64,000 nt of DNA from an uncultured Thermodesulfobacteriota bacterium. Its GTDB lineage: Bacteria > Desulfobacterota > GWC2-55-46 > JADFVP01. Position numbers and translations under genes: made by a program. The stretch covers positions 244 through 64,243 of the forward strand of contig CAYYJQ010000009.1 of the NCBI GenBank assembly GCA_964472295.1, given 5' to 3'. Positions 7,765 through 38,007 of this stretch are shown one piece after another; position 1 is the stretch's first letter, and every line of letters starts with the position of its first letter. Below the pieces are notes generated by a model. The model was not told where the DNA came from. It saw nothing but the letters and a program-made list of their open reading frames with translations, and did not search any database.

Positions 7765-7792
7765 ATCGGCACAGGGGTAAGAACCTTTAGAA
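7765..7792 (-). promoter_or_regulatory. Sigma-28 (FliA) promoter of fliC.
   Basis: The minus strand reads CTAAAG-GTTCTTACCCCTGT-GCCGATAA, an exact TAAA-N15-GCCGATAA match. It lies ~125 nt upstream of the fliC ATG. Confidence 0.65.
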
Positions 7793-8570: not shown

Positions 8571-10490
8571 TCACTTCTCGTTAACAACGGCGCGCCCGCC
8601 GCTGTCCGGGCCGTCAACGAGCCCGCGCGCCACTTCGAGTCCGTGACCTATCATGGGCTTAAAGAGAAGGCACATCTTCCTTACCTCGCTGTAAGTGCGA
8701 ATTGTCCTCTCAATGTCCTTCTCGAACTGTATCCTCGCGGACCCGTCCTCTTCCTCGCGGAGGTAGCCCTTCAGGTCATAGGTATACTCCACAAGCGCCT
8801 CCCAGAGGAACGAGACCTTGAGGGCGGCTTTGAAAAGTTTTTTTTCCTTTTTCCTTATCCTCTCTATGGGTCCTGAGAGTTCAAGAGAGAGTCCTTTTTC
8901 GAGAAAGGCCCTCTTAAGCCTTCCCGCCTCTCTGATAATCTCCGAGGAGAGGTTCAGGACAAGCCCCACGTGTTTTTCAAGTCCCCTGAAGGCCTCCAGA
9001 AGACCGCCCGCGTTGACATCGGGGCGCACGGCCCCGGCCTCGTCCAGTATCTTCTCGACTGGAACCGGCCCCTTCAAGTGTTGCTCAATGACCTCGGCAA
9101 GGGGCAGGTGCTCCATGCCCTTTATATAAGCGCCGCCCTCTGTTGAGTTGTAGACGCGGAGGCCGGGAAACTGCTCCTTCAGAAGGACCATGTACCTCTC
9201 GAACCACTGGTGAAATGTCACCCAGTCGTATTTACTGGCAACGGGCCGCCCGTCAAGGCCTGTAAGCCACTGGAGTTTATGGGTCATGGTGCGCCGGTGG
9301 CCTGAGATGTAGTGTTCCCGCACCAGAATAAGCCCCTTCTCCTCGTCTATCTCCACCCTCTGCCTGTCATAGACGCCTCCCTCGGCGTGGCTCTGTCCGT
9401 TCTCAAAGGCAAGGTCCTGACCAATGAAGATAATGGGGTCGCAACCGAATGTGACGCCCATGTCGAACATGGCCGTGGTTACGGAGCCGCCTATGGATAC
9501 AAAGGAACTGCTCCCCCAGAGCCCGGCCTGCTCAAGGCTGAGGGCGATGTAGGGGCTGTAGAAGATGAACTTTCCACGGGCCCGTCTTCTGAACATCTCA
9601 GGGTGAGAGACCTCGGAGAGTATGAGGCGTATATTCTCATCGGCCACGCCTCCGTCGAAGTACTCCTTGAGGTCCACCTTTTCTCCGGCTATGACGGCGT
9701 GGGGGGTAACGCCGTACTTGAGGAGGCTCTTGTAGGCCGTGATGGCCGATACGATAAAGGCCCTGTCCTTTATGCCGGAAAGTAGGGCGGCGTTCTTTTT
9801 TAGCGACGGTCCGGCCCCGACTATAACAAGGGGCACGCCCCTGAGCCTGTTATTCAGGACGCCGACAGATGGATAGGCGGCGAAATTCTCGAGGTTTGCG
9901 AAGTAGTTCTTCAGCCAGTCAAGGCGCGAGTCTATCTCTGTCCTTATGCCGACCTTCTGGGACGTATGGGCGTTCTCGACCTTTATGACAAAGTTACGGA
10001 GTTCCTCGGGAAAGGCAAGGCTGTAGGCAAGGGTATGATAGCCGAGGATATTATCGAGTCCATCGGTAAAACGCTGGACCCAGGCGATGAAGGGGCCTAT
10101 GTAGTTGGCAAGGAATACTCCGGGCAGGGAGAGTTCACGGCTCAGGTCAACTTCCATGAGCACGCCCTTTAGTATCTCCATGGAGGGCTCAAGGACAAAG
10201 ACCTTCTTCATGCCCTTCTTGAGGAGCGTACGGAGGAGATAGGCGCAGCCAAGACCAAAGATGACAACGCAGTCAGGTTTTTTCTTGAGTATTTCCCCTG
10301 CCTGAACCTCGGCCTCTTTCCATGGGGCGTACTGGCTGTTAAATAAACGGCCCCTGTACGAGAGGACTGGTTCGCCCTTCTTTGATACGCCAAGTTTAAC
10401 GGCCTTCTCAATATCAAAGGCCCTCAGCCTCTCGGCAAGGATGCTGTCTTTTTTCGCGATTGCCGTGATGTTTTTTTCAAATATTTTCAT
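8571..10490 (-). CDS. maf: Motility accessory factor (Maf) family protein. Maf proteins act as flagellin nonulosonic-acid glycosyltransferases in Campylobacter and Helicobacter.
   Basis: 639 aa. The central region matches the Maf/DUF115 (MptE-like) fold, with LNNRLRGVPLVIVGAGPSLKKN... and GDxxAAxN-type segments. It is co-located with the pse genes and flagellin. I take the start as the ATG at 10490, with GGAG 6 nt upstream; the track began at a TTG. Confidence 0.6.
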   Translation of the reverse strand: MKIFEKNITAIAKKDSILAERLRAFDIEKAVKLGVSKKGEPVLSYRGRLFNSQYAPWKEAEVQAGEILKKKPDCVVIFGLGCAYLLRTLLKKGMKKVFVLEPSMEILKGVLMEVDLSRELSLPGVFLANYIGPFIAWVQRFTDGLDNILGYHTLAYSLAFPEELRNFVIKVENAHTSQKVGIRTEIDSRLDWLKNYFANLENFAAYPSVGVLNNRLRGVPLVIVGAGPSLKKNAALLSGIKDRAFIVSAITAYKSLLKYGVTPHAVIAGEKVDLKEYFDGGVADENIRLILSEVSHPEMFRRRARGKFIFYSPYIALSLEQAGLWGSSSFVSIGGSVTTAMFDMGVTFGCDPIIFIGQDLAFENGQSHAEGGVYDRQRVEIDEEKGLILVREHYISGHRRTMTHKLQWLTGLDGRPVASKYDWVTFHQWFERYMVLLKEQFPGLRVYNSTEGGAYIKGMEHLPLAEVIEQHLKGPVPVEKILDEAGAVRPDVNAGGLLEAFRGLEKHVGLVLNLSSEIIREAGRLKRAFLEKGLSLELSGPIERIRKKEKKLFKAALKVSFLWEALVEYTYDLKGYLREEEDGSARIQFEKDIERTIRTYSEVRKMCLLFKPMIGHGLEVARGLVDGPDSGGRAVVNEK

Positions 10491-10805
10491 CAATCACTCC
10501 AACATTTTTTTACCGCGACTCAATGCCCCCCTCTTTTAAGCCGCCACAGAGCCAATAAAAAATATCTTCAATCTCTCCGGCATTTTTTTATCCGCGGCTC
10601 AAAGGCCGGTTCCTTTAAGCCGCGCAAGAGCGGGTAAAAAATCTTGTCAATCACTCCAACATTTTTTTATCCGCGGCTCGATGCCCCCCTCTTTTAAGCC
10701 GCCCCAGAGCGGGTAAAAAATCTCGTCAATCACTCCTATGTTTTTTTGCCCGCACCTTGAAGGTCAGTTCGTTTACGCCGCGCCAGACCCAGTAAGAGGT
10801 GTCGT
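10491..10805. repeat. Tandem direct repeat of period 78-79 bp, 3 full copies plus a degenerate 4th. It starts at the maf start codon and extends into the 3' end of the upstream GH57-like gene.
   Basis: The unit is caatcactcc-aacattttttta-ccgcggctc-Natgcccccctcttttaagccgcc-cagagcgggtaaaaaatct-gt. Copies begin at 10491, 10569, 10648 and 10727. Each carries T7-8 and A6-7 runs, and R1 and R3 carry C7 runs. The SD-like GGAGTGATTGA of maf is reiterated in every unit. Confidence 0.8.
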
Positions 10806-12840
10806 CAATCTCCCCGGCGCTGTGGTAGAGACGGAGAAAAAAAGTCGAGCCCCTCTCCCTGTAATCAACCATGGGCACGGGCAGTGCGTCTCCATGGTCC
10901 GAACTTATGGTAATCTTCTTCTCGTTATCTCCCATGCTCACCCAGCCCTCCGTGGCCCCGAGACACGACGAGGCCGAGATGGCCTGACTTACGGGGCTTG
11001 AGTGCGATACGGCGTGCCCCTGGAGCATGAACCTCTCGGGACGGGTCCCGCCGTTCACGGTCTCGTAGTAGAGTTGGTCTCTCTGAAAGGCCTCTGGCAT
11101 GAGCGTGAAGATACCGAGCCGCAGGGAAGAGGCCATGAGCCCCCGAAGCCTTAGCCTGTAGTGAAGGGTAAAGGAGCTATTTGAAAATGGGATGCGATAG
11201 GTCTTCTCGATTATTCCAATGGGCGACTCAATAGCGGCGAAGACGGATACGCCGTCATTGTCTTCAGTAACAGTGGGCGCAACGGGCAGGAGGTCCGTGG
11301 TCTTCCGGCCATGGCGGCTCGTCTGTATGAGGTGACCCGAGAAAAAGTCCGCGCCAAGGTCAATGGACTCGTAGTGTCCGTGGCTGATGGTGCCAATGAG
11401 GGGTTCTGGTGAGACAAGGGGAAAAGAGGCCGAACCAAGGGCAAGCCCCCTGTCCTTGAGGAGTTCAATCTCCACGGCCCCGGTGCATACCCTTAGCCGG
11501 GTCTCCGTCTCCTCTGTCTGGACCATGGGCATTAGCCCGGACCTCATTACAGCGCCTGCGCCGATATAGGGGCCGGCAAGGCAGAGGAGGTTGGCCTCCT
11601 GGTCTCTCCCGTTCATATCCTCATCTTCAGTCCCCTCTCCTGTTACTTCCACCAGTGCGTCCGTAAGGCCCGCTTCTCTCATGCGCCGCTCCGTCTCCAT
11701 TGAGAGCCAGCCCATGCCCTCGTTAAAGCGGGCGAATTTTTCATCCGTGGTATTTGTCCTGAAGTCCGAGGCCCAGAGTTCCGTGAGCGTCTCGCGCATC
11801 CTGTCCCAATCCCCTTCGCCTATTACCCCCGCCTTTCCAAGTCCGCGAAACCTCCTGTAGAGCCCCCTGCACCTCGCGTTTATATGGGCGCTGTCGCGGC
11901 CCGTGACCGACCACCTCAGGGGGTTGTACTTTTCCTGCTTCTTGCAGACAATGGGCGTCTCCACGGATTCGAGGCAAAGGGCCGGGGCCTCCCTGTCACT
12001 CTCAAACTTCTTGATAATCTCCACGGGCCGCATGAGTTCAAGCCCCCTCTCGCACCTTATGAGTTCAAGTATTCGCCTTATCCTCGAAAAGTCGCCGCGC
12101 CCGGTCCCGCCCCTTCCAGGGGTAAAGTCAAATATCTCGGCGTCATTGGAGTAGGCCGTGAAGGCGCGGTCCTCGGCGCGGCTGTAATGGGAGCGCAGGT
12201 ACTCCATGTATTCGTCCATGGGGACCTCGCCGCGCGCGGCGCGGGCGAACTTCTGAAAACCAATGGAATGAGACCAGAGGAGCCCTACTTCATCGCCGGG
12301 AACGAGCCCGGCGGCCCTCCGGGGCCTGTAGAGGAGGTCCTTCTCAAAACCGTTATGACGCGCCGAGTTGTTCCAGTCCATGATAATGGCCCTGTAGCCC
12401 GCTTCTTTATATAGTCCCGTAAGTCCTGCTGAATAGGTCTGCTCGTTCACAAGGGCAATCCCGGGGCGTCTTCCAAGTATCTCCTCATAGCCCCTGCACC
12501 CAAGTTCAAGGTTCCACCTGTTCACCTCTGCCGGGATAAGGGGCATGATGCACTGGGCATGGCCAGAGCCGATAAAGTCGAGGGCGCCCTCGGCCCAGAG
12601 TTCGCGGAGGCGGAGCGTAAAGGCGGGGTCAAGGTCCCGCACCCTCTGAAGGGTCCAGGCCGTCATCTCAATGGCCACGGCCAGCCCGGACTCGGCAAGG
12701 CGAAGTATGGGCCAGTAGCAACTCTTTATTACAGAGGGAAAGTCGCGGCTGTCTATGAGCGAGAAGGCGAGATTGCAGTGAAAGAGGGCATAGACCGAGA
12801 GCCCTGGCAGGGGCTTCTCCTCAAAGGAATTTTTTCTCAC
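10726..12840 (-). CDS. Large (704 aa) GH57-like member of the glycoside-hydrolase/deacetylase superfamily. Function unknown; presumably sugar processing in the glycosylation island.
   Basis: The N-terminal ~300 aa resembles the GH57 catalytic barrel, with a FIGSGHAQCIMPLIP block like the GH57 'yyHpIlPL' motif. The canonical HxHQP motif is replaced by FHCNLAF. The C-terminal half is unrecognised. The stop codon lies inside the tandem repeat. Confidence 0.35.
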   Translation of the reverse strand: MRKNSFEEKPLPGLSVYALFHCNLAFSLIDSRDFPSVIKSCYWPILRLAESGLAVAIEMTAWTLQRVRDLDPAFTLRLRELWAEGALDFIGSGHAQCIMPLIPAEVNRWNLELGCRGYEEILGRRPGIALVNEQTYSAGLTGLYKEAGYRAIIMDWNNSARHNGFEKDLLYRPRRAAGLVPGDEVGLLWSHSIGFQKFARAARGEVPMDEYMEYLRSHYSRAEDRAFTAYSNDAEIFDFTPGRGGTGRGDFSRIRRILELIRCERGLELMRPVEIIKKFESDREAPALCLESVETPIVCKKQEKYNPLRWSVTGRDSAHINARCRGLYRRFRGLGKAGVIGEGDWDRMRETLTELWASDFRTNTTDEKFARFNEGMGWLSMETERRMREAGLTDALVEVTGEGTEDEDMNGRDQEANLLCLAGPYIGAGAVMRSGLMPMVQTEETETRLRVCTGAVEIELLKDRGLALGSASFPLVSPEPLIGTISHGHYESIDLGADFFSGHLIQTSRHGRKTTDLLPVAPTVTEDNDGVSVFAAIESPIGIIEKTYRIPFSNSSFTLHYRLRLRGLMASSLRLGIFTLMPEAFQRDQLYYETVNGGTRPERFMLQGHAVSHSSPVSQAISASSCLGATEGWVSMGDNEKKITISSDHGDALPVPMVDYRERGSTFFLRLYHSAGEIDDTSYWVWRGVNELTFKVRAKKHRSD

Positions 12841-14459
12841 GGATACCTCTCCTTGAGTCCGAGGATGTCGTACTTTACGAACATGGCCGAGGTCTCAAGG
12901 AGGACGTTCATGAAGATTGGCCGCTTTCTCCGCCATACATCGCCTATGTAACGGAGCGCGCGCATGGGGTCTGACCTTATGAGGTGATGGGTCCTGTCGG
13001 CCTCGACAATGGTCTCTATGTACTCCGGGGTAAAGTCCCGCGTCTTTATATTGGGTTTTACCACCTCCACGCGGTCGTAACTGAACCCATCGGCAAAGAG
13101 GCCCTCGTCGCGACACCTCTCGAATAGTTCACTTCCCGGTAAAGGCGTGGCTATATAGACCTCTCTGCTGTCAAAGAGGCCGCTGTAGTTAGCCATGTAG
13201 AGAGAGCGCCGAATGTCATCTTTTGTCTCTCCCGGCAGGCCTATGACAAAGGTCCCTGTAAGGCGAACGCCCTTATTGCGGGCATAGCGCAGGACCTCCA
13301 TGGCGCGGTCGAGTTTAAGGGGTTTTTTGACTATATTTGTAAGTACCTCCTGAACCCCGGACTCGATGGCAAAGCCCATGGAGACGCATCCCATCTCAAC
13401 GAGTTCATCTATCAGTTCCTCGTCCATGCACCATAGGGCAAGGACCATGAAGTGTATCTCAAGGTCATAGCCCCGGCGTCTGAACCCGCGGCAGAACTCC
13501 TTTGCCCGCTTCCTGTCGTGGGTGAAGTTATCGTCAATTATCATGAGTTTTTTTATGCCGTAATTCTCGACAAGAAAATCTATCTCGCGAAAGACCTCTT
13601 CAAGGCAACGCGCCCGGAACTTGCGTCCCATGGTCCTGTGCACGGAGCAGAAGACGCACCTTCCGGCGCAGCCCCGAGTGGTGAGCACAGTGGGCATGGC
13701 CTGAGGCCAGCCCCATGTCACGGCCCGGGGCTCGTAGTTTTTGGAGTATTTTTCGTATGGAAAGAGGTGCCACGCCGGAAAGGGCAGGGCATCGAGGTCG
13801 TTTATGAAATCGCCCCTCGGGTTAACGGTAACACGCCCGTCCTCCCGCCAGACAAGGCCCGGCACAGAGGCATAGGCAGGGCCTTTTGCCGCGGCCCCGG
13901 CCTCTTCCATGTCTTTTTTCCCTTCTCCATCCTTACCCTCTTTGCACGTGCAGTTGTCGCAGGACTCTCCGTCGCCGCACCTGCCATCTTCTCTCTCAAT
14001 GGCGTCTATCAGGGCTGGAAGGGACTCCTCGGCCTCGCCCATGAGGACAAAATCAATGGCAGGGTTCTCCATGACCTCTTCGGGCATGGATGTGGGGTGG
14101 TTTCCGCCGACTACTACAGGGGAATCTGGGTAGATGGATTTCACGATACGGGCCGTCTCGTTCATGGAGCCCACCATTACTGAAAAGTTACAACTTATTC
14201 CAACCATATCTGGCTCAAAATCCCTTATCCTCTTTGAGACCTCGTCCATGGGAATACCCACCTCCACATAGTTGTCCCTTAGCGGCGCGTCCCTGTCGAG
14301 CCCCTCGGTCTGGCAGTCCAGAATGGCCACCTCACGGCCCCTCTTTTCAAGGACAGCCGCAAGGTACATTATGCCCATTGGGGGGTATACTATCCTCTGC
14401 CCTGATGTGGCTATCCTCATGCCCGGCTGTATAAGGAGTATCTTCTCTATTTTCTTCAT
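12837..14459 (-). CDS. B12-binding radical-SAM enzyme; probably a methyltransferase/rearrangement enzyme acting on the flagellin sugar.
   Basis: An N-terminal cobalamin-binding Rossmann domain (ILLIQPGMRIATSGQRIVYPPMGIMYLAAVLEKRG) precedes a radical-SAM CxxxCxxC cluster (CAGRCVFCSV). A Cys-rich linker (CGDGESCDNCTC) separates them. The start is at MKKIEKIL, with AAGGGA 6 nt upstream. Confidence 0.75.
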   Translation of the reverse strand: MKKIEKILLIQPGMRIATSGQRIVYPPMGIMYLAAVLEKRGREVAILDCQTEGLDRDAPLRDNYVEVGIPMDEVSKRIRDFEPDMVGISCNFSVMVGSMNETARIVKSIYPDSPVVVGGNHPTSMPEEVMENPAIDFVLMGEAEESLPALIDAIEREDGRCGDGESCDNCTCKEGKDGEGKKDMEEAGAAAKGPAYASVPGLVWREDGRVTVNPRGDFINDLDALPFPAWHLFPYEKYSKNYEPRAVTWGWPQAMPTVLTTRGCAGRCVFCSVHRTMGRKFRARCLEEVFREIDFLVENYGIKKLMIIDDNFTHDRKRAKEFCRGFRRRGYDLEIHFMVLALWCMDEELIDELVEMGCVSMGFAIESGVQEVLTNIVKKPLKLDRAMEVLRYARNKGVRLTGTFVIGLPGETKDDIRRSLYMANYSGLFDSREVYIATPLPGSELFERCRDEGLFADGFSYDRVEVVKPNIKTRDFTPEYIETIVEADRTHHLIRSDPMRALRYIGDVWRRKRPIFMNVLLETSAMFVKYDILGLKERYP

Positions 14460-14469
14460 GAAATATCCC

Positions 14470-15720
14470 TTATTGGACCATCCTGAGGCGTCCCTCGACC
14501 GTGAAATCAACGCCCTCGATGGCCTCGCGCGCCCTCATGGAGGCCTCTTCGGGCGTAACGCCCGTTGTAATGACCATGCCCGCCCTTCCGGGGTGAGATA
14601 CCACGGGGCCAAGGGTATCCCCTGGCTTCACGTTTATCTCCATCTCCTCAAGGCCGGGCATCATTTTTATATGCGGCGGTATGCGAATGGAGCGCACGAC
14701 TCCTGGCCCGGGGAACCAGAACCTCTGCGATACAAAGCGCGATTTCCATGGCCTGTAATCCCCTGCCCTTACCTTGACGCCAAGGGCAAGGAGGATTGCC
14801 GCCTCCACAATATCAACGCCCAATGAGAGGGGTATGGTATGGGTGCAGAAAAACCCGCCGCTTAGCCTCGGGGCGGCCTCTATGACCACGGGGCCGCAAT
14901 CGCCCATCACGATGTCGCCCTTTATAGTCCAGTCGTCAATACCAAGGGCCCTCCCTACCCTGCCTATTACCTTGTCCACGGCCTTGCGCTCATCATCTGT
15001 GAGGCGCGCCGGAAGGTCCCCTCCGTTCTCTATCACATAGGGCGAGAACCGCTCTATATACTCGTAATTTCTCTCCGAGAGCCCCGGCGTGGCCACCACC
15101 CCGCCCGTGAGCACGGACTCCGTACTTATCTGTAGCCCCTCCACCCATTCCTCCGCCATTACGCGGCCAGAGGGCGAGTTTTTCTCTGCCTCGAAGAAGG
15201 CCCACGAGGGGTCAACGCCCCCGGTAAGACGTATGACGCCGCGCGCGCCCCGGCTGTCCACTGGTTTTATTACAAGGGTTTTCTTTCGCTCAAAGATAAT
15301 TTTCTTTAGTTCCATGGGTCCCATTACCATGGAGTACCACGGCACTGGGACCCCGGCGCCTCTCATGGCCTCTTTCATGAGGAATTTATCGGACGCAAGG
15401 CGCGCCGACTCGATTGAGGGGCCGGGTAGACCGAGGCCCTCTGCCACGGTAGCCACTGTAAGGGGCACGTCAGCGGCGGCGGAGAGAACGCCGTCAATGG
15501 GACTTACACTGTGCATGGCCCGTGCGAGCCTCAGGGACTTTTCCGCGTCATAGGTGCTCGAAAGCATGGCCTCATGGGCAAGGGCAAGGCCCGGGGCCTT
15601 TTCATCGCCGTCAGAGACGATTACATGGAGCCCCATGGCAATGGCCTTCTCAATGATGGGCAGGGCCTCTCTTCCGCCGGAAATTATGAGTATGGTCTTT
15701 CCCGCAACGCTCATGGACAT
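14470..15720 (-). CDS. ATP-grasp family ligase.
   Basis: 416 aa with a pre-ATP-grasp N-domain and an ATP-grasp central domain (LASDKFLMKEAMRGAGVPVPWY...KTLVIKPVDSRGARGV...AEEWVEGLQISTESV). Confidence 0.7.
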   Translation of the reverse strand: MSMSVAGKTILIISGGREALPIIEKAIAMGLHVIVSDGDEKAPGLALAHEAMLSSTYDAEKSLRLARAMHSVSPIDGVLSAAADVPLTVATVAEGLGLPGPSIESARLASDKFLMKEAMRGAGVPVPWYSMVMGPMELKKIIFERKKTLVIKPVDSRGARGVIRLTGGVDPSWAFFEAEKNSPSGRVMAEEWVEGLQISTESVLTGGVVATPGLSERNYEYIERFSPYVIENGGDLPARLTDDERKAVDKVIGRVGRALGIDDWTIKGDIVMGDCGPVVIEAAPRLSGGFFCTHTIPLSLGVDIVEAAILLALGVKVRAGDYRPWKSRFVSQRFWFPGPGVVRSIRIPPHIKMMPGLEEMEINVKPGDTLGPVVSHPGRAGMVITTGVTPEEASMRAREAIEGVDFTVEGRLRMVQ

Positions 15721-17403: not shown

Positions 17404-17430
17404 AATCGTCCTCCTCTTTTTAGGTGTCAC

Positions 17431-18642: not shown

Positions 18643-18645
18643 GGT

Positions 18646-21032: not shown

Positions 21033-22024
21033 GACCTGCCCCGTCTCTTGTATAGTTCGGCTATGATTGTGGCGATACGCCAGGCCCCGCGCCCGTCGCT
21101 GAGCCTCTTTGCCTGCGCCGAGACCTCGCGCCAGTAGGAGGCGTCTTCCACAAACCTTGCGGTGGCACCCCTTATGAGTTCTTCCGATAGAGCGCCATGA
21201 AAACCGAGGGATACGCCGACCTTGAGCTCTCGGAGGGCCGCGAGGTCTTTTTCGTCTTCTCTATAGTTTGATATGATTAGCGGAGGGACTCCCATGAAGG
21301 CGAGTTCATACACAGTGGTGCCAAGGGCCGTAAAGGCGATGTGCGACGATGCCATAAGCGGCGCCATGTCCTTGACAGACCTGCGAAAGGTGATGGCCGG
21401 GTTATGGAGGAAGGGTTCAAGCGTCTCGTAATGCCCATAATCAGGACCAAGGACAACGGTAAATTTTATGTCCTCCATGCCCGAGAGGGCCTTCAAGACC
21501 TTCAGTGTGATGTTATTGGCGTCGCACCAGCCCATGGTGACAAGAATCTTTAGGGGAAGGTCGTGGCCAATAGGCTTCATGGCCTTTCTGGCGCGAAAGA
21601 AGTTATCGCCTATGATGACGAACTTGCTCCCCGCGTAGGCCTCGCCTTTTTTTCTCCTGTCCATGAATGCCGATGGTGTTATGGAGAGGTCCGCCATCAT
21701 GGAGGCCCTTGTGGAGTTGTCTATGAGGAGGACCTTTGAGCCCTTCTCCTTGAAGGACCTTATCTGCTCAGTCACGTCCTCTTCCGTGTCCATTACGACC
21801 ACGCCAGAAGGCCCCTCGGCAAGGGCCGGCCTTCCGGGACGGTATCTGCACCATGTAAAGCCGTTCTCCTCTACAAGATCAGTGGCCGAGCTCTCGTTGT
21901 CAAATAGAAAGTACACAGGCATGTCCATCTCCTTCAAGGCCCGGGCCACGTTGAGGCTCCTCATAACATGGCCCATGCCCCTTGGGCCGCCGCCCTTTGC
22001 AAGTATCTTTATGTATTCTGACAT
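21029..22024 (-). CDS. pseG: PseG-like UDP-2,4-diacetamido-2,4,6-trideoxy-beta-L-altropyranose hydrolase (GT28-like fold).
   Basis: ILAKGGGPRGMGHVMRSLNVARAL matches the PseG N-terminal G-rich/GHxxR motif. It is ~330 aa and sits in a pse cluster. Confidence 0.6.
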   Translation of the reverse strand: MSEYIKILAKGGGPRGMGHVMRSLNVARALKEMDMPVYFLFDNESSATDLVEENGFTWCRYRPGRPALAEGPSGVVVMDTEEDVTEQIRSFKEKGSKVLLIDNSTRASMMADLSITPSAFMDRRKKGEAYAGSKFVIIGDNFFRARKAMKPIGHDLPLKILVTMGWCDANNITLKVLKALSGMEDIKFTVVLGPDYGHYETLEPFLHNPAITFRRSVKDMAPLMASSHIAFTALGTTVYELAFMGVPPLIISNYREDEKDLAALRELKVGVSLGFHGALSEELIRGATARFVEDASYWREVSAQAKRLSDGRGAWRIATIIAELYKRRGRS

Positions 22025-23034
22025 ATCTTCAGCTCCTTTTTTCCTCTCACATCAACGGCCGATTCCCTCACCTTCATGGCGAGCCTCAGCGTCTCAAGCC
22101 CCTCGTCAAGACCCGGGTCCGCCGGGACGCCCGTGCCCATGGAAGAGAGAAAGTGCTTTATCTCCCTTAGATACATATCATTGACCTCAAAGAGAATGTC
22201 CCTTCTTCGCCATTCGCTTCCCGCTGGGCCGCATATCTCTTCCACGCCCCTCATGATGTCGAACCTCATGGTCCCCCGCTCGCCCACGATTACAAGCCTG
22301 TGCTGGCCCGCGCGCTGGAGAAAGTCCGTCTGCCAACTCACATATGCCCCGGAAGAGAGCCTCATGACGGCAAGGGCCATGTCCTCTACGTCCATCTCAA
22401 GGGGGCTTACCCTGTCCATGAAGGCCTTTACCTCTTCCACCTCGCCAAAGAGCCACCTCAGCGTATCAAGGCCGTGTATGCTCGTAAGGAGCACCCCGCC
22501 GCCAAGGTCCCTTCGCGCCGCGTAGCCTCTTCTGTAGTCTTCCTTCCCGTGCCAGTAGGGAAGATAATGCCCGCCAAAATAATTCACGTGATAGACCCGC
22601 CCGATGACTCCCGATGCGAGGCGCTCCTTTACTGCAAGGAGCACGGGGTGGAACCTGTAGCACATGGCCATCATGGCGTTAAGGCCCCTCATCCTGACAA
22701 TGTCCATGAGCCTTGCCACGCCGTCCATCTCACTTGAGAGGGGTTTTTCGATAAAGAGGTGCGCCCCCTTTGAGGCGGCCATGGCGGCGTGCCTCGTGTG
22801 AAGGCTTGTCGGGGTGCATATGAGGGCCGCCGCCGGACAAGCCCTCAGGGCCTCTTCCATTGTAGTGGCGATGACAGGGCCTGTAAGCCCCTCTCCGGCA
22901 GACCTTGCGCGGGCAGGGTCCCGGTCGAGGAGGACAAAGTCTTTCGCTCCGAGGGCGCGGAGGTTTACAAGGTGTCTTCTCCCTATGGAGCCGCATCCGG
23001 CTATGAGGAATTTCTTTTTTATCGTATTTTTCAT
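22009..23034 (-). CDS. Gfo/Idh/MocA-family NAD(P)-dependent sugar oxidoreductase.
   Basis: FLIAGCGSIGRRHLVNLRALG is the N-terminal Rossmann motif. 341 aa. Confidence 0.7.
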   Translation of the reverse strand: MKNTIKKKFLIAGCGSIGRRHLVNLRALGAKDFVLLDRDPARARSAGEGLTGPVIATTMEEALRACPAAALICTPTSLHTRHAAMAASKGAHLFIEKPLSSEMDGVARLMDIVRMRGLNAMMAMCYRFHPVLLAVKERLASGVIGRVYHVNYFGGHYLPYWHGKEDYRRGYAARRDLGGGVLLTSIHGLDTLRWLFGEVEEVKAFMDRVSPLEMDVEDMALAVMRLSSGAYVSWQTDFLQRAGQHRLVIVGERGTMRFDIMRGVEEICGPAGSEWRRRDILFEVNDMYLREIKHFLSSMGTGVPADPGLDEGLETLRLAMKVRESAVDVRGKKELKICQNT

Positions 23035-23038
23035 GGCA

Positions 23039-24352
23039 TCAGTCCCTGCTCCTGAAGACCTCGCCCACTATCTCTCCGTCGAGAAAAGATGCCGGGCTCG
23101 CGCTCTCGAAGGCGTTTCGCACCACGGAGAGGGCCTCATAAGAGACCTCTATGGTGCGGTCTATATCCACCTCGCTGTGCGAGTAACTCGTAAAGACGGG
23201 CCCGCCAAAGAGCACGCCGCGTTTAACCGTCTCCTGCAAAAAGAGGCTCCTCATGAGGGGGTCGGCCTCGCCAAGGTCGTTCCTGAAGATAAGTCCGGCG
23301 CGCGGGGGCCGGCCGGAGACCTCCATCTCAAGGCCCCACTCGTGGGCCGCGAGCCTCAGGCCCTCGTGGAGCCTTGCGCCCATCTTCCAGATATGCTCAA
23401 TTACAGGTTCCCTCATGATGGTCTCAATAGTGGCCTTTGCCGCGGCAAGCCCGGTGGTCTCTCCAGAGAAGGTCATGGAAAAGAAGACCTCGTCAAGGGA
23501 GTTCATGAACTCGCGCTTGCCCACAAGGGCCGAGACAGCCATGCCGTTGGCCATGCCCTTTCCAAAGCATGACAAATCCGGCTCCACGCCAAAGAGTTCC
23601 TGCGCCCCGCCAAGGGAGTACCTGAACCCCGTGACCATCTCGTCAAGGATAAAGAGGGCGCCGTTCTTCCTGCAGAGGAGCGCCGCGTCCTGAAGAAAGT
23701 TGCGCTTTGTCCTGAGGTTTATGACAGGATCTGCGCCCGGAACCTCCATTATGACGCAGGCTATCTGCCCGTAGAACTCATCAAATAGGGTCTCGAGGGT
23801 CTCGAGCCTGTTGTACTCGAAGGCGTGTATGAGTTCTCTGTTGAAATCAGGTATGCCGCGGTTACGCGGCGTTGTAACGGCGTACCAGTCCTGACACCCG
23901 TGATACCCTGAATAGGCTATATGCTCTCTACCGGTGCAGGCGCGGGCCAGGCGCACCGCCGCGCTCGTCACATCAGAGCCGTTCTTAGCGAAGCGGACCA
24001 TCTCGGCAGAGGGTATGACCTCTGTAAGTAATTCGGCGAGTTCCACCTCAAGGGGGTGCATGAGCGTGAAGGTCGTCCCGAGGCCAAGCCTGTCCATTAC
24101 CGCCTCCATGACGGGCCTGTACCCATAGCCAAGGAGTATGGGACCAAGTGCCATGGGGTAATCAATGTACTCGTTTCCGTCAACATCCCAGACGTGGGCC
24201 CCCCTGCCGCGCTCAAGATACCTGGGCGTCACGCCGAAGACAAACTGGTCGGGCCCCTTGCTAAGTGTCTGCGTGCCCGCTGGTATGACCCTCGCGGCCC
24301 TTGCCCAGAGGGCCTCAGATGCCGGGTGTATCTTCTTCCTCATAAGCGCCAT
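23039..24352 (-). CDS. Class-III (PLP) aminotransferase, glutamate-1-semialdehyde aminomutase-like.
   Basis: 437 aa. ...RVIPAGTQTLSKGPDQFVFGVTPRYLERGRGAHVWDVDGNEYIDY... is the GSA-AT family N-terminal pattern, and a 'DEMVTGFRYSLGGAQE' PLP-lysine region follows. Confidence 0.7.
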   Translation of the reverse strand: MALMRKKIHPASEALWARAARVIPAGTQTLSKGPDQFVFGVTPRYLERGRGAHVWDVDGNEYIDYPMALGPILLGYGYRPVMEAVMDRLGLGTTFTLMHPLEVELAELLTEVIPSAEMVRFAKNGSDVTSAAVRLARACTGREHIAYSGYHGCQDWYAVTTPRNRGIPDFNRELIHAFEYNRLETLETLFDEFYGQIACVIMEVPGADPVINLRTKRNFLQDAALLCRKNGALFILDEMVTGFRYSLGGAQELFGVEPDLSCFGKGMANGMAVSALVGKREFMNSLDEVFFSMTFSGETTGLAAAKATIETIMREPVIEHIWKMGARLHEGLRLAAHEWGLEMEVSGRPPRAGLIFRNDLGEADPLMRSLFLQETVKRGVLFGGPVFTSYSHSEVDIDRTIEVSYEALSVVRNAFESASPASFLDGEIVGEVFRSRD

Positions 24353-24417
24353 TGGGTAATCCTCCTATTACTTGTCCTTGAGCGCGTCCGGGTGCCTAAT
24401 GACCGGACCGTAAGCCC

Positions 24418-25440
24418 TCACCGGTGGGGAAGCCCTGAAAAGGGCATGTCCCCGGCAAGGGATCTAAGATAGCCCTCGTTTCTGATGGTCGATGAATTTA
24501 TCTTTAATAATTCAGGTATTCTGTCAATAAGTTCAAGTATCTCCTCCATATAGAAGACCCTCAGCGGACAGGCAAAACTCTGGAAGACCTTACGGGCAAA
24601 CTCAAGGTCGCGGCCATCGTCCACTGTCCAGCGCATATGGGAGAGGTCTTCTATATTAGGAATGGAACGCACTCTGAACCTCTGCCTGTTTTTCCATATA
24701 TGGGGCGTGACGTGCTCTCTCTCCGAGGGCAGAATTGCTTCTTTAAAGGCACGGTCAAGTGCATGGAAGGTGAAGACCTCTGTGTCGAGGCCATCTGGAA
24801 AGGTTCCGTCAAGGCCCATGTAATCGAGGTCAGGGGCGTTGAGGAACTCCTCGACAACCCTCTCCACAAGTATGGGGTCTATCATGGGGCAATCGGCTGT
24901 AACGCGCACCACGGTTCGTGCTCCATGCTCTTTTGCCGCGCCATGATAGCGGGAGAGCACATCAGAGAGCGCACCCCTGTAAGAGGCCACGCCCTCAGAT
25001 GAGCACCAGCGCGAGATAATGTCATCGGAAGAGTGTGTGCTCGTGGCGACCACTATTTCATCAATGGCCCTTACATACCTCAGGCGGTTTATAACGTGCC
25101 AGAGCATGGGCCGTCCGCAGATTTCCCGCATCACCTTTCCGGGAAGCCTCGTGGAACTCATCCTTGCCTGCACTATGGCGACAACGGGCCTTCGCGGTGT
25201 TTGCGCGCCAAAGGGCCTCTTCGCGCCCTCCGCGCCTCGCGTCCCCCTTCTTGCATACCTCTCTCCCCCTGTCTCCCTATCTCCCATCTCCCCCCTTGGC
25301 CCCGTCGCCCCCATCGCCCCCGTCGCCCCCTCTCCCCCTGTGCCACTCGCCCCCTCTGCGATCTTCAACCCCTTTGCCCCCATCGCCCTCTCTCCCCTTG
25401 GCCCCCCTGGGCGCATGTCTCTCAACATAGGTCCTCCCAC
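24418..25440 (-). CDS. pseF: CMP-pseudaminic acid synthetase / acylneuraminate cytidylyltransferase (PseF-like) with an N-terminal collagen-like Gly-X-Y extension.
   Basis: The core reads VVAIVQARMSSTRLPGKVMREICGRPMLWHVI..., the CMP-NeuAc-synthetase family motif. At least 35-90 aa of Gly-rich sequence precede it (GAKGLKIAEGASGTGGEGATGAMGATGPRGEMGDRETGGERYARRGTRGAEGAKRPFG). The true start lies somewhere between 25440 and the MGDRE codon. Confidence 0.65.
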   Translation of the reverse strand: MGGPMLRDMRPGGPRGERAMGAKGLKIAEGASGTGGEGATGAMGATGPRGEMGDRETGGERYARRGTRGAEGAKRPFGAQTPRRPVVAIVQARMSSTRLPGKVMREICGRPMLWHVINRLRYVRAIDEIVVATSTHSSDDIISRWCSSEGVASYRGALSDVLSRYHGAAKEHGARTVVRVTADCPMIDPILVERVVEEFLNAPDLDYMGLDGTFPDGLDTEVFTFHALDRAFKEAILPSEREHVTPHIWKNRQRFRVRSIPNIEDLSHMRWTVDDGRDLEFARKVFQSFACPLRVFYMEEILELIDRIPELLKINSSTIRNEGYLRSLAGDMPFSGLPHR

Positions 25441-26462
25441 ATAAGGGGCATGTCTCTTGGCAGGTCCCGCGCCGCCCTCTTGCCGATGACGCTCTTCATC
25501 TCGCCCGGCCTTAGTCCAAGGGCGTGGCGCACCACCTTGAGCATGTCCCCGGTTATAAGCGTGTCTTTCTTTATGTTCACATCGGCATATACGCCGCGCC
25601 TCGCCCCTGTCCTCTCGCGCGCCTCCTCTGTCGAGGGCTCCTTTACAGGGCTCCCGAGCGCGGCCTCGAGGTTACGGACCTCGCGCGACATGAGGGCGAA
25701 CTCCCCTGGCTCCATGGAATGGCCATGGTCAGGGCCATCCATGGACCTTGAAAGGGTAAGGTGTTTTTCAACTATGGCCCCGCCCAAGGCAACGGCCCCG
25801 AGGGCCACGGCCATGCCGGGCGTGTGGTCCGAGATTCCCACAGGACAGCGGAACCTTTTCGAGAGCGTCTTCATGGCGCGGAGGTTTACGTCGCTGAACC
25901 TTGGCGGATAGAGGGCCGTGCACTGGAGAAGGGCGACTTCCGTAGCCCCTGCACCCTGCAAGATGGAGGCGGCCTCCTCGACCTCTTCCATGAAGGAAGC
26001 CCCGGTGGAGAGGATTACGGGCCTGCCAAGGGAGCCGACAAGACGCAGGAGGGGTTCGTTGGTAATGTCGCCCGAGGCTATCTTGAAGGCCTTTATGCCG
26101 GCGAGCCCAAGGAGTTCGGCGGCACGCGGGCTGAAGGGCGTAGAGAGAAAATCCATGCCAAGGGACTCGGCATGTTCTTTCAGTTCCGGGTGCCAGGGCC
26201 AGGGCAGGCTCAGCCGCTCAAGTGCGCCATAGGCGGGGTTCTCTTCCCAGCCGCCCCTGTTATCGGGCCTCAGGGGGTTGAGGAGGCCGTGGGCCGTGAA
26301 GGACTGGAACTTCACGGCATCGGCCCCGGCCTTGGCCGCGGCGCTTATGAGGTCCAACGCCGTCTCAAGGCTCCCGTTGTGGTTGGAGCCGGCCTCGGCT
26401 ATGATATAGGCCCTGTGCCCCCTGCCAAGACGCCTCTTTCCTATGGTCAAGACCTTCTTCAT
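25422..26462 (-). CDS. pseI: Pseudaminic acid synthase (NeuB family) with a C-terminal SAF domain.
   Basis: AYIIAEAGSNHNGSLETALDLISAAAKAGADAVKFQ is the NeuB signature. I chose the start at MKKVLTIGKRR (26462), which overlaps the pseC stop as ATGA. The track's 83-aa N-terminal extension is rejected. Confidence 0.8.
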   Translation of the reverse strand: MKKVLTIGKRRLGRGHRAYIIAEAGSNHNGSLETALDLISAAAKAGADAVKFQSFTAHGLLNPLRPDNRGGWEENPAYGALERLSLPWPWHPELKEHAESLGMDFLSTPFSPRAAELLGLAGIKAFKIASGDITNEPLLRLVGSLGRPVILSTGASFMEEVEEAASILQGAGATEVALLQCTALYPPRFSDVNLRAMKTLSKRFRCPVGISDHTPGMAVALGAVALGGAIVEKHLTLSRSMDGPDHGHSMEPGEFALMSREVRNLEAALGSPVKEPSTEEARERTGARRGVYADVNIKKDTLITGDMLKVVRHALGLRPGEMKSVIGKRAARDLPRDMPLMWEDLC

Positions 26463-27673
26463 CCTGCTCTCTTCTCCTTGAGTCTCATGGACCCCCGAAG
26501 GGTCTTTATTACGGCATTTGCCACGAACCTTACGTCCTGATCTGAAAGGGACGGGTATATGGGGAGGCTCGCCTCGGAGGCGTAAAAGGCCTCTGCCGAG
26601 GGATATTCTCCGCCGCGGAAACCAAAATTGGCCCTGTAATAGGGCTGGAGATGCACGGGTATGTAATGGACCTGAAGGGCTATACCCTCGCTTAGCATGG
26701 AGTTGAACCACCCGGCCTTGTCAATGCCGAGCCTCGCGAAGTCCACTCGCAGGGGGTAGAGGTGCCATGCGCTCCCGCTTCCATGGGGCGCGGAAGGGAT
26801 GGCGAGCATCTCGCCATGACAGGCGAAGAGCCTCGTGTAGAGGGCGGCAATCTCTCTACGCCTCTCCATGAAGGAGCCGATCTTTCTGAGTTGGCTGAGA
26901 CCCAGGGCGCACTGTATGTCTGAAATCCTGTAATTAAAGCCCAGGGAACGCATCTCATACTTCCAGGGCGCCCAGCGTTCGCCCTGTTGAGGCGTCTTTG
27001 TAATCCCATGAGAGCGGATTTCAAGAAGTTTCCTGTAGAGGTCCTCGTCATTGGTGGTTACGGCCCCTCCCTCGCCCGTTGTGATGGACTTTACGGGGTG
27101 GAAACTGAAGACCGTCATGTCGGAATAATCACAGCCGCCAACCATGCGCTTTCTGCCCCTTGAGTCCAGAAAGGACGCCCCAAGGGCGTGGCAGGCGTCT
27201 TCTATTACAACGGCCCCGGACCTTGAGGCCATGGCCCCAAAGGTCTCCATGTCAAGGGGCGCGCCGCCGTAATGCACGGGGATAACGGCGCTCACACCGC
27301 CCTTGAGAGCCTCGGCTGTCTTCTCAAGGTCCATGACCCCTGTCTCCTCAACAACGTCCACGAAAAGAGGAGTCGCGCCCGTGTAGAGCGCGGCGTTGGG
27401 AGTGGCCACAAAGGTATTGGGCGTTGTAAGGACTCTTTTACCCCCTTCAAGGCCCGCGGCAAGACAGGCCATGTGCAGGGCCGCCGTGCCGCTTGAGCAG
27501 GCAACTGCGTATCTCGCGCCAACGTACGCCGACAGCGCCTCCTCAAAGGCCCCTACAAGGGGTCCCTGCGTAAGATACTGGGACTCAAGGACCTCAAGTA
27601 CAGACCTTGTATCTTCCACGCCTATTGTCTGACCTCCGTAAGCGATAGGTCTTTTTCTTCTCACCCCTGTCAA
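26459..27673 (-). CDS. pseC: DegT/DnrJ/EryC1-family PLP aminotransferase, PseC-like (UDP-4-amino-4,6-dideoxy-AltNAc aminotransferase).
   Basis: ...GQTIGVEDTRSVLEVLESQYLTQGPLVGAFEEALSAYVGARYAVACSSGTAALHMA... is the typical DegT N-terminus. 404 aa. The start may be slightly downstream of 27673, since it overlaps the pseB 3' end. Confidence 0.75.
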   Translation of the reverse strand: MTGVRRKRPIAYGGQTIGVEDTRSVLEVLESQYLTQGPLVGAFEEALSAYVGARYAVACSSGTAALHMACLAAGLEGGKRVLTTPNTFVATPNAALYTGATPLFVDVVEETGVMDLEKTAEALKGGVSAVIPVHYGGAPLDMETFGAMASRSGAVVIEDACHALGASFLDSRGRKRMVGGCDYSDMTVFSFHPVKSITTGEGGAVTTNDEDLYRKLLEIRSHGITKTPQQGERWAPWKYEMRSLGFNYRISDIQCALGLSQLRKIGSFMERRREIAALYTRLFACHGEMLAIPSAPHGSGSAWHLYPLRVDFARLGIDKAGWFNSMLSEGIALQVHYIPVHLQPYYRANFGFRGGEYPSAEAFYASEASLPIYPSLSDQDVRFVANAVIKTLRGSMRLKEKRAG

Positions 27674-28640
27674 ACTCCCTTATTATCTTGTGAAGTTGAA
27701 ATCTGTCGAGTTTCATCTCATTGGTATCGCTGGAATAGTAAAAGCCCTCGGGCACACGCTCGCCGCCAACGTCTTTCTCCGCGCCCCACCAGGGAAAGTG
27801 GGGCTGAACAACATAGTGGTCATCAAACTCCAGAGTGAGCCTGCCGTCTTCCCGTGATATGAGGACCTCGTGGAGTTTCTCACCGGGCCTGATGCCTATG
27901 AGGTTGAAGGAGCACTCTGGAGAGATGGCCCGGGCAACGTCGGCGATGGAAGAACTCGCTATCTTTGGGACGAATATCTCGCCGCCGCGCATCCGCTCAA
28001 GGGACTTGATGACAAAGATGGCGCTCTCATCAAGGGTTATCCAGAAACGGGTCATGCGCATATCCGTAATGGGCATGACGCCCGCCTTTTTATTCTTCAG
28101 AAAGAGGGGGATGACGCTTCCACGGCTTCCGGCCACGTTGCCGTAGCGCACGACGGAAAAGCGTGTGGGCTTTGGACCGGCGTAGGAGTTGCCGGAAATG
28201 AAGAGTTTATCGGAACAGAGTTTCGTGGCGCCGTAGAGGTTCACGGGGTTTACGGCCTTGTCCGTGGAGAGGGCCACGACCTTCCTCACGCCAGTGTCCA
28301 TGGATACGTCGATTATGTTCTTTGCCCCGAGGATATTTGTCTTTATGACCTCAAAGGGGTTGTACTCCGCGGCAGGGACCTGCTTCAGGGCCGCGGCGTG
28401 TATGACGTAATCAACACCCTCGAAGGCCCTGTAAAGACGCTCCTTGTCGCGAACATCGCCGAGAAAGAACCTTAGAAGCGAACTCCCGAACCGTGCGTTC
28501 ATCTCGTACTGCTTGAGCTCGTCGCGGCTCAAGATGATGAGTTTCTTCGGTCTGTGCCTCGACAGTATTATCTCCGTGAGTTTGTTTCCAAGTGAACCTG
28601 TGCCGCCGGTTATTAAGATGGTCTTGTCTTCAAGATACAT
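27594..28640 (-). CDS. pseB: UDP-GlcNAc 4,6-dehydratase (inverting), PseB-like.
   Basis: MYLEDKTILITGGTGSLGNKL...YGATKLCSDKLF has the Rossmann motif plus the YxxxK catalytic pair. I chose the start at MYLEDK because the track's upstream extension would overlap the sigma-54 promoter. Confidence 0.8.
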   Translation of the reverse strand: MYLEDKTILITGGTGSLGNKLTEIILSRHRPKKLIILSRDELKQYEMNARFGSSLLRFFLGDVRDKERLYRAFEGVDYVIHAAALKQVPAAEYNPFEVIKTNILGAKNIIDVSMDTGVRKVVALSTDKAVNPVNLYGATKLCSDKLFISGNSYAGPKPTRFSVVRYGNVAGSRGSVIPLFLKNKKAGVMPITDMRMTRFWITLDESAIFVIKSLERMRGGEIFVPKIASSSIADVARAISPECSFNLIGIRPGEKLHEVLISREDGRLTLEFDDHYVVQPHFPWWGAEKDVGGERVPEGFYYSSDTNEMKLDRFQLHKIIREFDRGEKKKTYRLRRSDNRRGRYKVCT

Positions 28641-28672
28641 GGGCAATCCTCCTTTTCTCCCATACTTGTAAT

Positions 28673-28687
28673 GCAACTTGTATGCCA
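28673..28687 (-). promoter_or_regulatory. Sigma-54 promoter of the pseB-led glycosylation operon.
   Basis: The minus strand reads TGGCATACAAGTTGCA, which is TGGCAC-N5-TTGCA with one mismatch. It ends ~33 nt upstream of the pseB ATG. Confidence 0.55.
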
Positions 28688-28930
28688 TGGAAAATCAAGG
28701 GGCCATTAAGGCGCAACACCCCCCTGAAGGCGCGTAGCCTCGGGAAAAAATGCGGTGTGACAAAAAAATGACAGGATATTGGAGTGTAAAAAAAAGATTA
28801 ACGAGAAAGGGAAAGCGGAAAAGAATCAACTGCCGTGGATGTAACCTGCCAGCGGCCAATGGCCGGTGTAAGGGAAAAACCCCCTTGAGAGAGACCTTGT
28901 AGAGGAGATAAAAAAAGGGCGTAAAACAAA

Positions 28931-37967: not shown

Positions 37968-38007
37968 TCACTCACCTCCGCGCAAAAGACTACGCAAGGT
38001 CTGAATC

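Follow-up and report, generated by a model that had tools for sequence, protein, structure and literature searches.

How does a bacterium decorate its flagellin with a pseudaminic acid (Pse)-type sugar when the acetyltransferase of the known pathway, PseH, is not found beside its other glycosylation genes? The question is raised by a 64-kb window (the whole stretch of DNA analyzed here) on contig CAYYJQ010000009.1 of an uncultured, sulfate-reducer-type Thermodesulfobacteriota bacterium. The window holds an island of ~20 kb, composed of 16 tightly packed minus-strand genes (8571-28640), whose upstream neighbors encode FlgK, FlgL, CsrA, and FliW and whose last gene, maf, is followed by a 201-amino-acid (aa) open reading frame (ORF) and then by the genes for flagellin, FliD, FliS, and FliT. 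Gene identities were assigned by Pfam and NCBIfam scans together with gene calls on identical JGI contigs; coordinates below refer to the minus strand unless stated otherwise. It is very likely that this is a flagellin nonulosonic acid (NulO) island with a noncanonical, tailored product. Our overall reading, to which we give a probability of roughly 0.55, is that a sigma-54-dependent operon of the flagellar regulon makes a Pse-type NulO, acylates it with an ATP-grasp ligase, and attaches it to flagellin. The specific proposal that the ligase substitutes for PseH is held more tentatively, at slightly worse than even odds.

The front end of the pathway is clear. PseB (27594-28640; inverting UDP-GlcNAc 4,6-dehydratase, 348 aa; TIGR03589, 489 bits against a cut-off of 407.75) and PseC (26459-27619; DegT-family aminotransferase; TIGR03588, 459 bits against 423.5) are the only Pse-core proteins that clear NCBIfam equivalog cut-offs. 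An earlier note on this DNA had listed PseI, PseF, and PseG as well, and these three hold at family level only, under their cut-offs. The NulO synthase (25422-26462; NeuB and SAF domains; Pfam NeuB, 269 bits) reaches 341 bits on the NeuB_NnaB equivalog model (cut-off, 400) and 294 bits on that of PseI (cut-off, 340), and it is about equally close to the solved structures of Neisseria meningitidis NeuB (200.5 bits) and PseI (8h2c; 194.4 bits). The SpsF-family cytidylyltransferase (24418-25425; CTP_transf_3), the presumed CMP-sugar synthetase, scores 26 bits on the PseF model TIGR03584 (cut-off, 206) and is thus no PseF equivalog, though it may fill that role. Its closest match in the PDB is 6oew, a cytidylyltransferase without a gene name, and several sources name its homologues, which are 255 to 296 aa long, SpsF. 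The divergent PseG-like UDP-sugar hydrolase (21029-22024) has TIGR03590 as its sole family match (106 bits; cut-off, 153.55) and yielded no Pfam or PDB sequence match.

The transfer step is equally recognizable. Maf (8571-10490) is a protein of ~600 aa with an MptE-like/DUF115 domain (PF01973, 110.7 bits against a cut-off of 34.6), whose gene neighbors those for flagellin and NulO biosynthesis; the PseD domain model aligned across residues 75 to 532, a TPR domain was not detected, and the C-terminal part has no Pfam match. The presumed acceptor is the 280-aa flagellin encoded by fliC (6797-7639), whose central segment contains 18 Ser/Thr in 60 residues. That Maf and a Pse-type core lie directly upstream of flagellin, as the earlier note had it, is borne out by both the domain scans and the gene calls.

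In contrast to the canonical pathway, no GNAT or hexapeptide acetyltransferase was found among the called genes and large ORFs of the whole window, and the earlier observation that PseH is lacking extends to its relatives. Acetyltransferases were absent from three diverged syntenic loci (FliW to the radical S-adenosylmethionine [SAM] enzyme gene) and from an Acidobacteriaceae sister locus, and acetyltransferase families were not among the top 25 Pfam families of 75 extra ORFs in 14 PseB- and/or PseC-bearing NulO-type sister loci. That census was dominated by thiamine pyrophosphate (TPP) enzymes, short-chain dehydrogenases/reductases (SDRs), aldo-keto reductases (AKRs), methyltransferases, and split transketolases. 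The island also has no pseA/ptm-type amidotransferases. Hidden acyltransferase domains were considered in the N terminus of the second methyltransferase (MT2) and in the C termini of Maf and the PseG-like protein, and none was found.

What the island carries in addition is an accessory set that domain scans confirm throughout as first listed. Its ATP-grasp carboxylate-amine ligase (14470-15714; ATP-grasp and LAL_C2 domains) is of the L-amino-acid ligase type and resembles the L-amino-acid ligase BL00235, PurD, and Ddl; it has 1684 relatives at E<=1e-10, the closest named ones coming from Thermodesulfobacteriota metagenome-assembled genomes (MAGs). Upstream of it lie genes for two zinc-dependent alcohol dehydrogenases (ADHs) of the medium-chain dehydrogenase/reductase (MDR) family, ADH1 (17431-18642), similar to class-III ADHs, and ADH2 (15711-16757), similar to polyol reductases, ketose reductases, and threonine dehydrogenases, both assigned by Pfam/NCBIfam, and between them a fructose-6-phosphate aldolase (FSA) of the FSA/TalC type (16711-17403; TIGR00875, 255 bits against a cut-off of 245.95). 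The B12-binding radical SAM enzyme (12837-14459; PF02310, 94.7 bits; PF04055, 79.6 bits) has class B architecture, with an N-terminal B12-binding domain and a CAGRCVFC motif (CxxxCxxC) at residue 264. Every one of its NCBIfam matches falls under cut-off, and its solved relatives are, in rank order, the diol dehydratase AprD4, 9ccb (a radical SAM core domain protein without a specific name), and TsrM and TokK, both methylases; as judged from these, it is possibly a C-methylase or a radical dehydratase acting in deoxygenation.

The remaining accessory genes comprise a class-III aminotransferase (23039-24352; Aminotran_3; glutamate-1-semialdehyde aminomutase-like, omega-type; PRK06209, 429 bits, under the cut-off of 486), a Gfo/Idh/MocA oxidoreductase (22009-23034; Pfam), two SAM methyltransferases, MT1 (19992-21032; Methyltransf_23) and MT2 (18646-19977; Pfam), and a GH57-like enzyme considered below. 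In P0327, from a Deltaproteobacteria MAG, a class-III aminotransferase and an SpsF-type cytidylyltransferase form a natural Aminotran_3-CTP_transf_3 fusion, Rosetta stone-type support which suggests that the two enzymes act on the same (CMP-)sugar. MT1, which has a low-complexity N terminus, belongs to a widespread module, with homologues in 36 of the 80 loci described below. MT2 is largely confined to the clade of the window, and its ~215-aa N-terminal domain (residues 1 to 215) has no Pfam or NCBIfam match.

Two of these gene calls appear to start too early. The cytidylyltransferase (25180-25425) and MT1 (20940-21032) calls both open with G/R/A-rich low-complexity sequence that is absent in homologues, and are probably over-extended in this GC-rich DNA. 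The 85-aa N-terminal extension of the cytidylyltransferase is thus probably an over-long start call, its true start being probably near 25180; that of MT1 probably lies ~28 to 31 codons downstream of the call. Like the P0327 fusion, P0254 (487 aa) is an enlarged variant among the cytidylyltransferase homologues.

How might these enzymes work together? By family-level assignment, PseB and PseC would convert UDP-GlcNAc to UDP-4-amino-4,6-dideoxy-L-AltNAc; the PseG-like hydrolase, NeuB-family synthase, and SpsF-family cytidylyltransferase would carry it on to a CMP-NulO; and Maf would transfer the NulO to Ser/Thr of the adjacent flagellin. Since no acetyl-CoA N-acetyltransferase is encoded in the window, the amine installed by PseC (the future N7) would not be acetylated. 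We propose that the ATP-grasp enzyme acylates it instead, passing through an acyl-phosphate. The acyl donor would be a small polyhydroxy acid made for the purpose, built from central sugar phosphates by FSA and the two polyol-type MDR dehydrogenases and tailored by the two methyltransferases and by the B12-radical SAM enzyme, which would either methylate a carbon or remove oxygen by radical chemistry. One more position would probably be oxidized and aminated by the Gfo/Idh/MocA enzyme and by the class-III aminotransferase, the latter functionally tied to the cytidylyltransferase. An N-acylated and/or methylated noncanonical NulO, as first suggested, is therefore the most reasonable product of the island's enzyme set.

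Several considerations weigh against this scheme. Every step is predicted from family assignment, and PseH could be encoded beyond the 64-kb window. It is hard to see where the ligase would obtain a carboxylate, because MDR zinc ADHs normally interconvert alcohols and carbonyls. The ligase could also work the other way round, with the carboxylate on the sugar and a small amine, made by the class-III aminotransferase, as its partner; the amidoligases of the Campylobacter capsule are an example. Lastly, the pair of ATP-grasp ligase and GH57-like protein is not strictly NulO-specific, because one Acidobacteriota locus has it among Wzx/Wzy genes, and NulO genes are absent within 10 kb of it.

The relatives of the island show which parts belong together. 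The full island, with the same gene order between FliW and flagellin, was found in ~14 Thermodesulfobacteriota/"Deltaproteobacteria" MAGs, and its synteny holds down to ~45 to 55% protein identity. Farther afield, 80 genome loci were fetched with an ATP-grasp profile, and all window proteins were compared with them by tblastn. Of the 80, 68 have the GH57-like gene along with the ligase, in 41 cases directly adjacent to it; the 12 loci without it are mostly contigs that end ~0.6 to 3 kb from the ligase. Other companions are the NeuB-family synthase and the SpsF-type cytidylyltransferase (40 loci each), the class-III aminotransferase (37), and the PseG-like protein (36). The pair is usually located next to genes for PseB, PseC, and NeuB. 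Flagellin or Maf lies near the ligase in just ~20 of the 80, many of the others being nonflagellar polysaccharide loci. These loci come from more than 10 phyla and include Acidobacteriota, Binatia, Solirubrobacteraceae, Planctomycetota, Dehalococcoidia, Gemmatimonadota, Gammaproteobacteria, and Spirochaetales.

Individual loci differ in the genes next to the ligase. The Acidobacteriaceae locus runs PseB-PseC-NeuB-cytidylyltransferase-aminotransferase-AKR-PseG-like-methyltransferase-SDR and continues with split transketolase-ATP-grasp-GH57-like, followed by Wzx and glycosyltransferase genes. A Spirochaetales locus has NeuB-cytidylyltransferase-split transketolase-SDR-ATP-grasp beside Maf-GH57-like-PseB and flagellin, and in other loci an IlvB-like TPP enzyme of ~565 to 600 aa lies directly upstream of the ligase, with an SDR or AKR. 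The side-chain sets beside the ligase thus look interchangeable: FSA and two ADHs in the window, split transketolase and SDR, or IlvB-like TPP enzyme and SDR/AKR. From the ligase companions and locus orders across phyla we infer a conserved logic, in which a swappable C-C-bond enzyme is combined with a reductase, a methyltransferase, the ATP-grasp ligase, and the GH57-like protein. The clade of the window is marked by FSA with two MDR ADHs, by MT2, and by a closely related radical SAM enzyme; some nonclade loci have FSA-like matches (33 to 42% identity) and distant B12-radical SAM paralogues (24 to 34% identity). The latter were seen in six flagellin-linked ATP-grasp/GH57-like loci (L022, L028, L037, L039, L042, and L081). 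Radical SAM tailoring may be recurrent in flagellar versions of the module.

The closest described system is that of Shewanella oneidensis MR-1, where sfmABCDE, beside maf, encode a NeuB-family protein, an IlvB-like TPP enzyme (SfmB), a 255-aa SDR (SfmC), a methyltransferase, and an ATP-grasp protein (SfmE) (PMC3765264). Deletions in sfm abolish or reduce the mass shift of flagellin, loss of sfmE reducing the mass, and the glycan consists of a 274-Da mono-acetylated NulO and a nitrogen-free O-methylated moiety of 236 to 264 Da (PMC3765264). Like the Shewanella locus (pseB/pseC, sfmABCDE, maf-1, and also maf-2/glfM), the window holds a flagellar Pse-type pathway with clear equivalogs of PseB and PseC alone, the only two that could be identified by homology in Shewanella (PMC3120886), where the cytidylyltransferase is likewise atypical and unusually large (bioRxiv 10.1101/2023.12.03.569772). 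At the domain level, and by the published description of sfm, the two systems share a NeuB-family gene, a SAM methyltransferase, and an ATP-grasp gene next to maf. Where sfm has the IlvB-like TPP enzyme and the SDR, however, the window has FSA and two MDR zinc dehydrogenases, although sister loci of the window share the TPP enzyme and SDR upstream of the ligase with sfm. MT2, the B12-radical SAM enzyme, the Gfo/Idh/MocA oxidoreductase, the class-III aminotransferase, and the GH57-like protein are extras relative to sfm as described. The promoters also differ, sigma-28 being reported for Shewanella and sigma-54 found here.

As a kind, the island is known: flagellin glycosylation by a NulO, with tailoring like that of sfm. 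The gene combination, which the earlier note set apart from Campylobacter and Helicobacter loci, is not unprecedented: Shewanella sfmABCDE is a precedent (PMC3765264), and the ATP-grasp/GH57-like pair is widespread over phyla. Genetic study of a member of the module appears to be limited to sfmABCDE. The particular combination of genes and the multiphylum pairing of ATP-grasp and GH57-like proteins appear undescribed in the searchable literature, in which no paper joined transketolase, ATP-grasp, and nonulosonic acids; a search for ATP-grasp with legionaminic acid (Leg) returned Shewanella and Clostridioides difficile papers only.

Other known systems resemble the island in part. With the CMP-Pse5Ac7Ac pathway of Campylobacter and Helicobacter (PseB, C, H, G, I, and F, with Maf/PseD/PseE) it shares PseB and PseC equivalogs, UDP-sugar hydrolysis, phosphoenolpyruvate condensation, CMP activation, and Maf-type transfer to flagellin; unlike that pathway, it has no PseH in the window, has divergent PseG, PseI, and PseF counterparts, lacks pseA/ptm, and carries ~11 kb of extra enzymes. 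The product predicted here has parallels in natural Pse/Leg derivatives that bear a small hydroxy acid, in some cases O-methylated, as their N-acyl group: Pse5Am7Gra of Tannerella forsythia, with an N-glyceroyl group whose genes were stated to be unknown (PMC5378307), and the 2,3-di-O-methylglyceroyl Pse/Leg of Campylobacter jejuni 11168 (SugarBase preprint, bioRxiv 10.64898/2026.04.20.719630). T. forsythia has a functional PseH, unlike the window; the likeness is one of product type. The SpsF-type enzymes of Bacillus subtilis (sps/legionaminic acid loci) belong to the same CTP_transf_3 subfamily as the enzyme described here and have been used to find PseF-like genes in flagellar loci of Clostridium (PMC13317340); unlike B. 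subtilis SpsF, the enzyme here is coupled to a class-III aminotransferase and a PseB/PseC front end.

Could the product instead contain ordinary Pse5Ac7Ac, with PseH encoded elsewhere in the genome and the accessory set decorating another position? In that case the Gfo/Idh/MocA enzyme would oxidize C4 or C8 of the NulO, the aminotransferase would add a third amine, the ATP-grasp ligase would acylate it, and the methyltransferases and radical SAM enzyme would tailor the result. Oxidoreductase/aminotransferase pairs are standard for sugar amination, and a Gfo or AKR oxidoreductase accompanies the aminotransferase in sister loci. The aminotransferase adjoins the CMP-sugar synthetase and is fused to it in P0327, which suggests a NulO or CMP-NulO substrate, and the search for an acetyltransferase covered 64 kb of the genome. 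We nevertheless consider this explanation rather unlikely. An acetyltransferase is systematically absent not only in syntenic relatives but also in distant PseB/PseC-bearing sister loci; the PseG-like and NeuB-family proteins depart from the canonical equivalogs, as enzymes with a substrate other than the 2,4-diacetamido sugar would be expected to; and the NulO core of Shewanella has two nitrogens and one acetyl group (PMC3765264).

A second alternative turns on the GH57-like protein (10726-12840), a 704-aa enzyme with a GH57 catalytic domain and a mutarotase-like beta-sandwich. Sources label its homologues "hypothetical" or generic GH57, and an exhaustive profile search places 717 clusters (50% identity) in the family at E<=1e-30. 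The protein has the (beta/alpha)7-barrel catalytic fold of GH57, and its AlphaFold model, made with 32 homologues, has a pLDDT (per-residue confidence) of 88.9 and a pTM (global fold confidence) of 0.88. It is only 11 to 16% identical to the GH57 4-alpha-glucanotransferase of Thermococcus litoralis (1K1W) and to AmyC of Thermotoga maritima (2B5D). The family retains the motifs FHxNL, VNEQ, and NDAE(V/I)FD, the first of which differs from the HQP that classical GH57 enzymes have at their first signature motif. In a profile alignment to 1K1W (E = 3e-12), the family-invariant E133 and D233 fall on E123 and D214, which we take to be the GH57 nucleophile and acid-base, respectively. Sequence and model together predict that it is probably a distinct, catalytically active GH57-type enzyme. 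Whereas classical GH57 enzymes serve in glucan metabolism, this family sits in NulO/polysaccharide loci beside the ATP-grasp ligase, a context that argues for a substrate other than alpha-glucans. Literature searches returned nothing on GH57 in combination with flagellin glycosylation.

On this alternative, the accessory block would make a second, non-nitrogenous sugar or polyol-like unit, which the GH57-like protein, as a retaining transglycosidase, would attach to the NulO or its side chain, yielding a two-part flagellin glycan like the 274- plus 236- to 264-Da glycan of Shewanella. We regard it as distinctly improbable, for to our knowledge characterized GH57 enzymes act on alpha-glucans, the scans of the island turned up no genes that would supply a second sugar as a nucleotide sugar or on a lipid carrier, and both the pairing of the ligase with the GH57-like protein and the missing PseH are left unexplained. 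It would nonetheless account for a GH57 fold with intact nucleophile and acid/base joined to a sugar-binding mutarotase-like domain, and for the presence of FSA and polyol-type dehydrogenases, which produce sugars and polyols; the outer moiety of the Shewanella glycan is, moreover, nitrogen-free, O-methylated, and readily lost in the ion source (PMC3765264).

A third alternative would make the accessory genes mere neighbors of the Pse core, with a role in unrelated metabolism or in O-antigen or extracellular polysaccharide synthesis. This is hardly credible: homologous ATP-grasp/GH57-like pairs do occur in nonflagellar Wzx/Wzy polysaccharide loci, and FSA and zinc ADHs are generic metabolic families, but the 16 genes keep a fixed order from FliW to flagellin in ~14 diverged MAGs, their junctions overlap, the domain scans found no Wzx, Wzy, or glycan glycosyltransferases in the island, where Maf is the sole transferase, and a conserved flagellar-type sigma-54 promoter stands in front of it.

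A broader reading can be entertained, which we think unlikely as it stands: that the module is a widespread, PseH-independent route in more than 10 phyla, in which an ATP-ligated, bespoke polyhydroxy-acyl group replaces the N-acetyl of Pse-type sugars. The B12-radical SAM enzyme of this clade would then add carbon to the sugar, by C-methylation or carbon extension, and so give rise to "higher-carbon" ulosonic acids as in Magnetospirillum, whose C10-backbone CMP-ulosonic acids were detected without a biosynthetic explanation, and the GH57-like partner would be a new glycosidase or transglycosidase acting on a NulO pathway intermediate. 

NulOs of flagella and surface glycans govern motility, phage recognition, and immune recognition, yet few of the enzymes that vary the N-acyl groups of these sugars have been identified, and the structure of the Shewanella glycan has been worked out only in part. 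The locus and its 80 relatives define a testable, phylogenetically broad enzyme set, composed of an ATP-grasp ligase family, a distinct GH57-like family, and interchangeable side-chain modules that seem to take over the PseH step. They supply candidates for the genes behind NulO structures that lack an explanation, as well as new ligases for use in Maf-based glyco-engineering, and they show that uncultured anaerobic Thermodesulfobacteriota possess such islands, with flagellar control by sigma-54.

The evidence for that control comes mainly from conservation. A sigma-54-type -24/-12 element, TGGCATacaagTTGCA (28672-28687), lies 31 nucleotides (nt) upstream of the pseB ATG and differs by one mismatch from TGGCAC-N5-TTGCW (GG and GC 10 nt apart). 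It lies outside the coding sequence, because pseB begins at 28640, at an ATG preceded by a ribosome-binding site, and not at 28688. Diverged clade loci for alignment of the 319-bp FliW-pseB spacer were reached through cytidylyltransferase homologues; a metagenome scan with PseB gave, among the matches listed, generic PseB relatives only (<=65% identity). TGGCA(T/C)-N5-TTGCAT occupies the identical position in L170, L171, and L172, and thus in all four orthologous spacers, the window included, while the remainder of the spacer is ~54% conserved across diverged relatives. The count of sigma-54 consensus sites in the window is not above chance, so that it is conservation that supports the site; the count alone is no evidence. 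In the four aligned spacers a second conserved block, GTCATTTTTTTGTC (28759-28772), stands ~72 nt upstream of the -24 element; it has a single exact match within the window and is a candidate site for an enhancer-binding protein/activator or integration host factor. Neither rpoN nor a gene for a cognate enhancer-binding protein lies within the 64-kb window.

To the earlier note, the whole operon appeared to be driven by this one promoter. The site itself is now phylogenetically footprinted; its control of the whole island is inferred. From pseB to the GH57-like gene all junctions are <=65 bp and 8 of 14 overlap, but a gap of about 235 bp precedes maf, and fliC has its own sigma-28 promoter, TAAAG-N14-GCCGATAA (7763-7789), the sole perfect match in the window, so that flagellin and the glycosylation operon use different sigma factors. 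A single sigma-54 transcript from pseB through maf is plausible.

The gap before maf contains a 79-nt tandem repeat of 3.3 copies (10490-10747, no strand assigned), a lineage-specific triplication; relatives have 8 to 75 bp at this junction, without the repeat. Each copy holds GGAG, an 11-codon mini-ORF, and a TAAAAG...GCGGATAA element, and the mini-ORF products MTRFFTRSGAA* and MKIFFIGSVAA* resemble the Maf N terminus, MKIFEKN. The spacer, with its sigma-28-like elements and mini-ORFs, was considered as a conserved regulator and rejected, since relatives lack the triplication.

Between maf and fliC lies the 201-aa ORF (7797-8402), which is conserved in 15 loci, has no Pfam family, and ends in a helix, LLAD-(I/V)-LEYE(L), that is invariant. 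The D-x-x-E spacing of this last helix recalls D77/E80, essential in GlfM, the cis-encoded Maf-2 adaptor of ~89 aa with a four-helix, FliS/FliT-like structure; GlfM was compared by description only. An hhalign comparison with FliS gave a probability of 0.1, and a single-sequence AlphaFold2 model (pLDDT, 42) was unusable. A role for the ORF as a Maf accessory factor or GlfM-like adaptor is speculation.

Sigma-54-type sites also occur elsewhere. Within the window, TGGCACagttgTTGCG (38007-38022) lies 39 nt upstream of a flgF/flgG-like rod gene (37254-37967), which suggests that the island may be coregulated with middle flagellar genes. L085, from a Spirochaetales MAG, has three exact TGGCA-N6-TTGCW sites on the minus strand (4666-4681, 16508-16523, and 19816-19831), one directly upstream of a PseB-like/GH57-like/Maf operon and one directly upstream of flagellin, and a sigma-54 activator gene at the edge of the locus. 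Signaling genes are found among the flagellar genes of the window as well: a 1200-aa hybrid sensor kinase (39207-42872; dCache/PAS/HisKA/REC/Hpt) and a REC-GGDEF protein (38279-39181) lie between blocks of flagellar genes, and the gene next to that of FliT encodes a PilZ protein (3962-4576). As far as domain content goes, these genes suggest local cyclic di-GMP control of motility.

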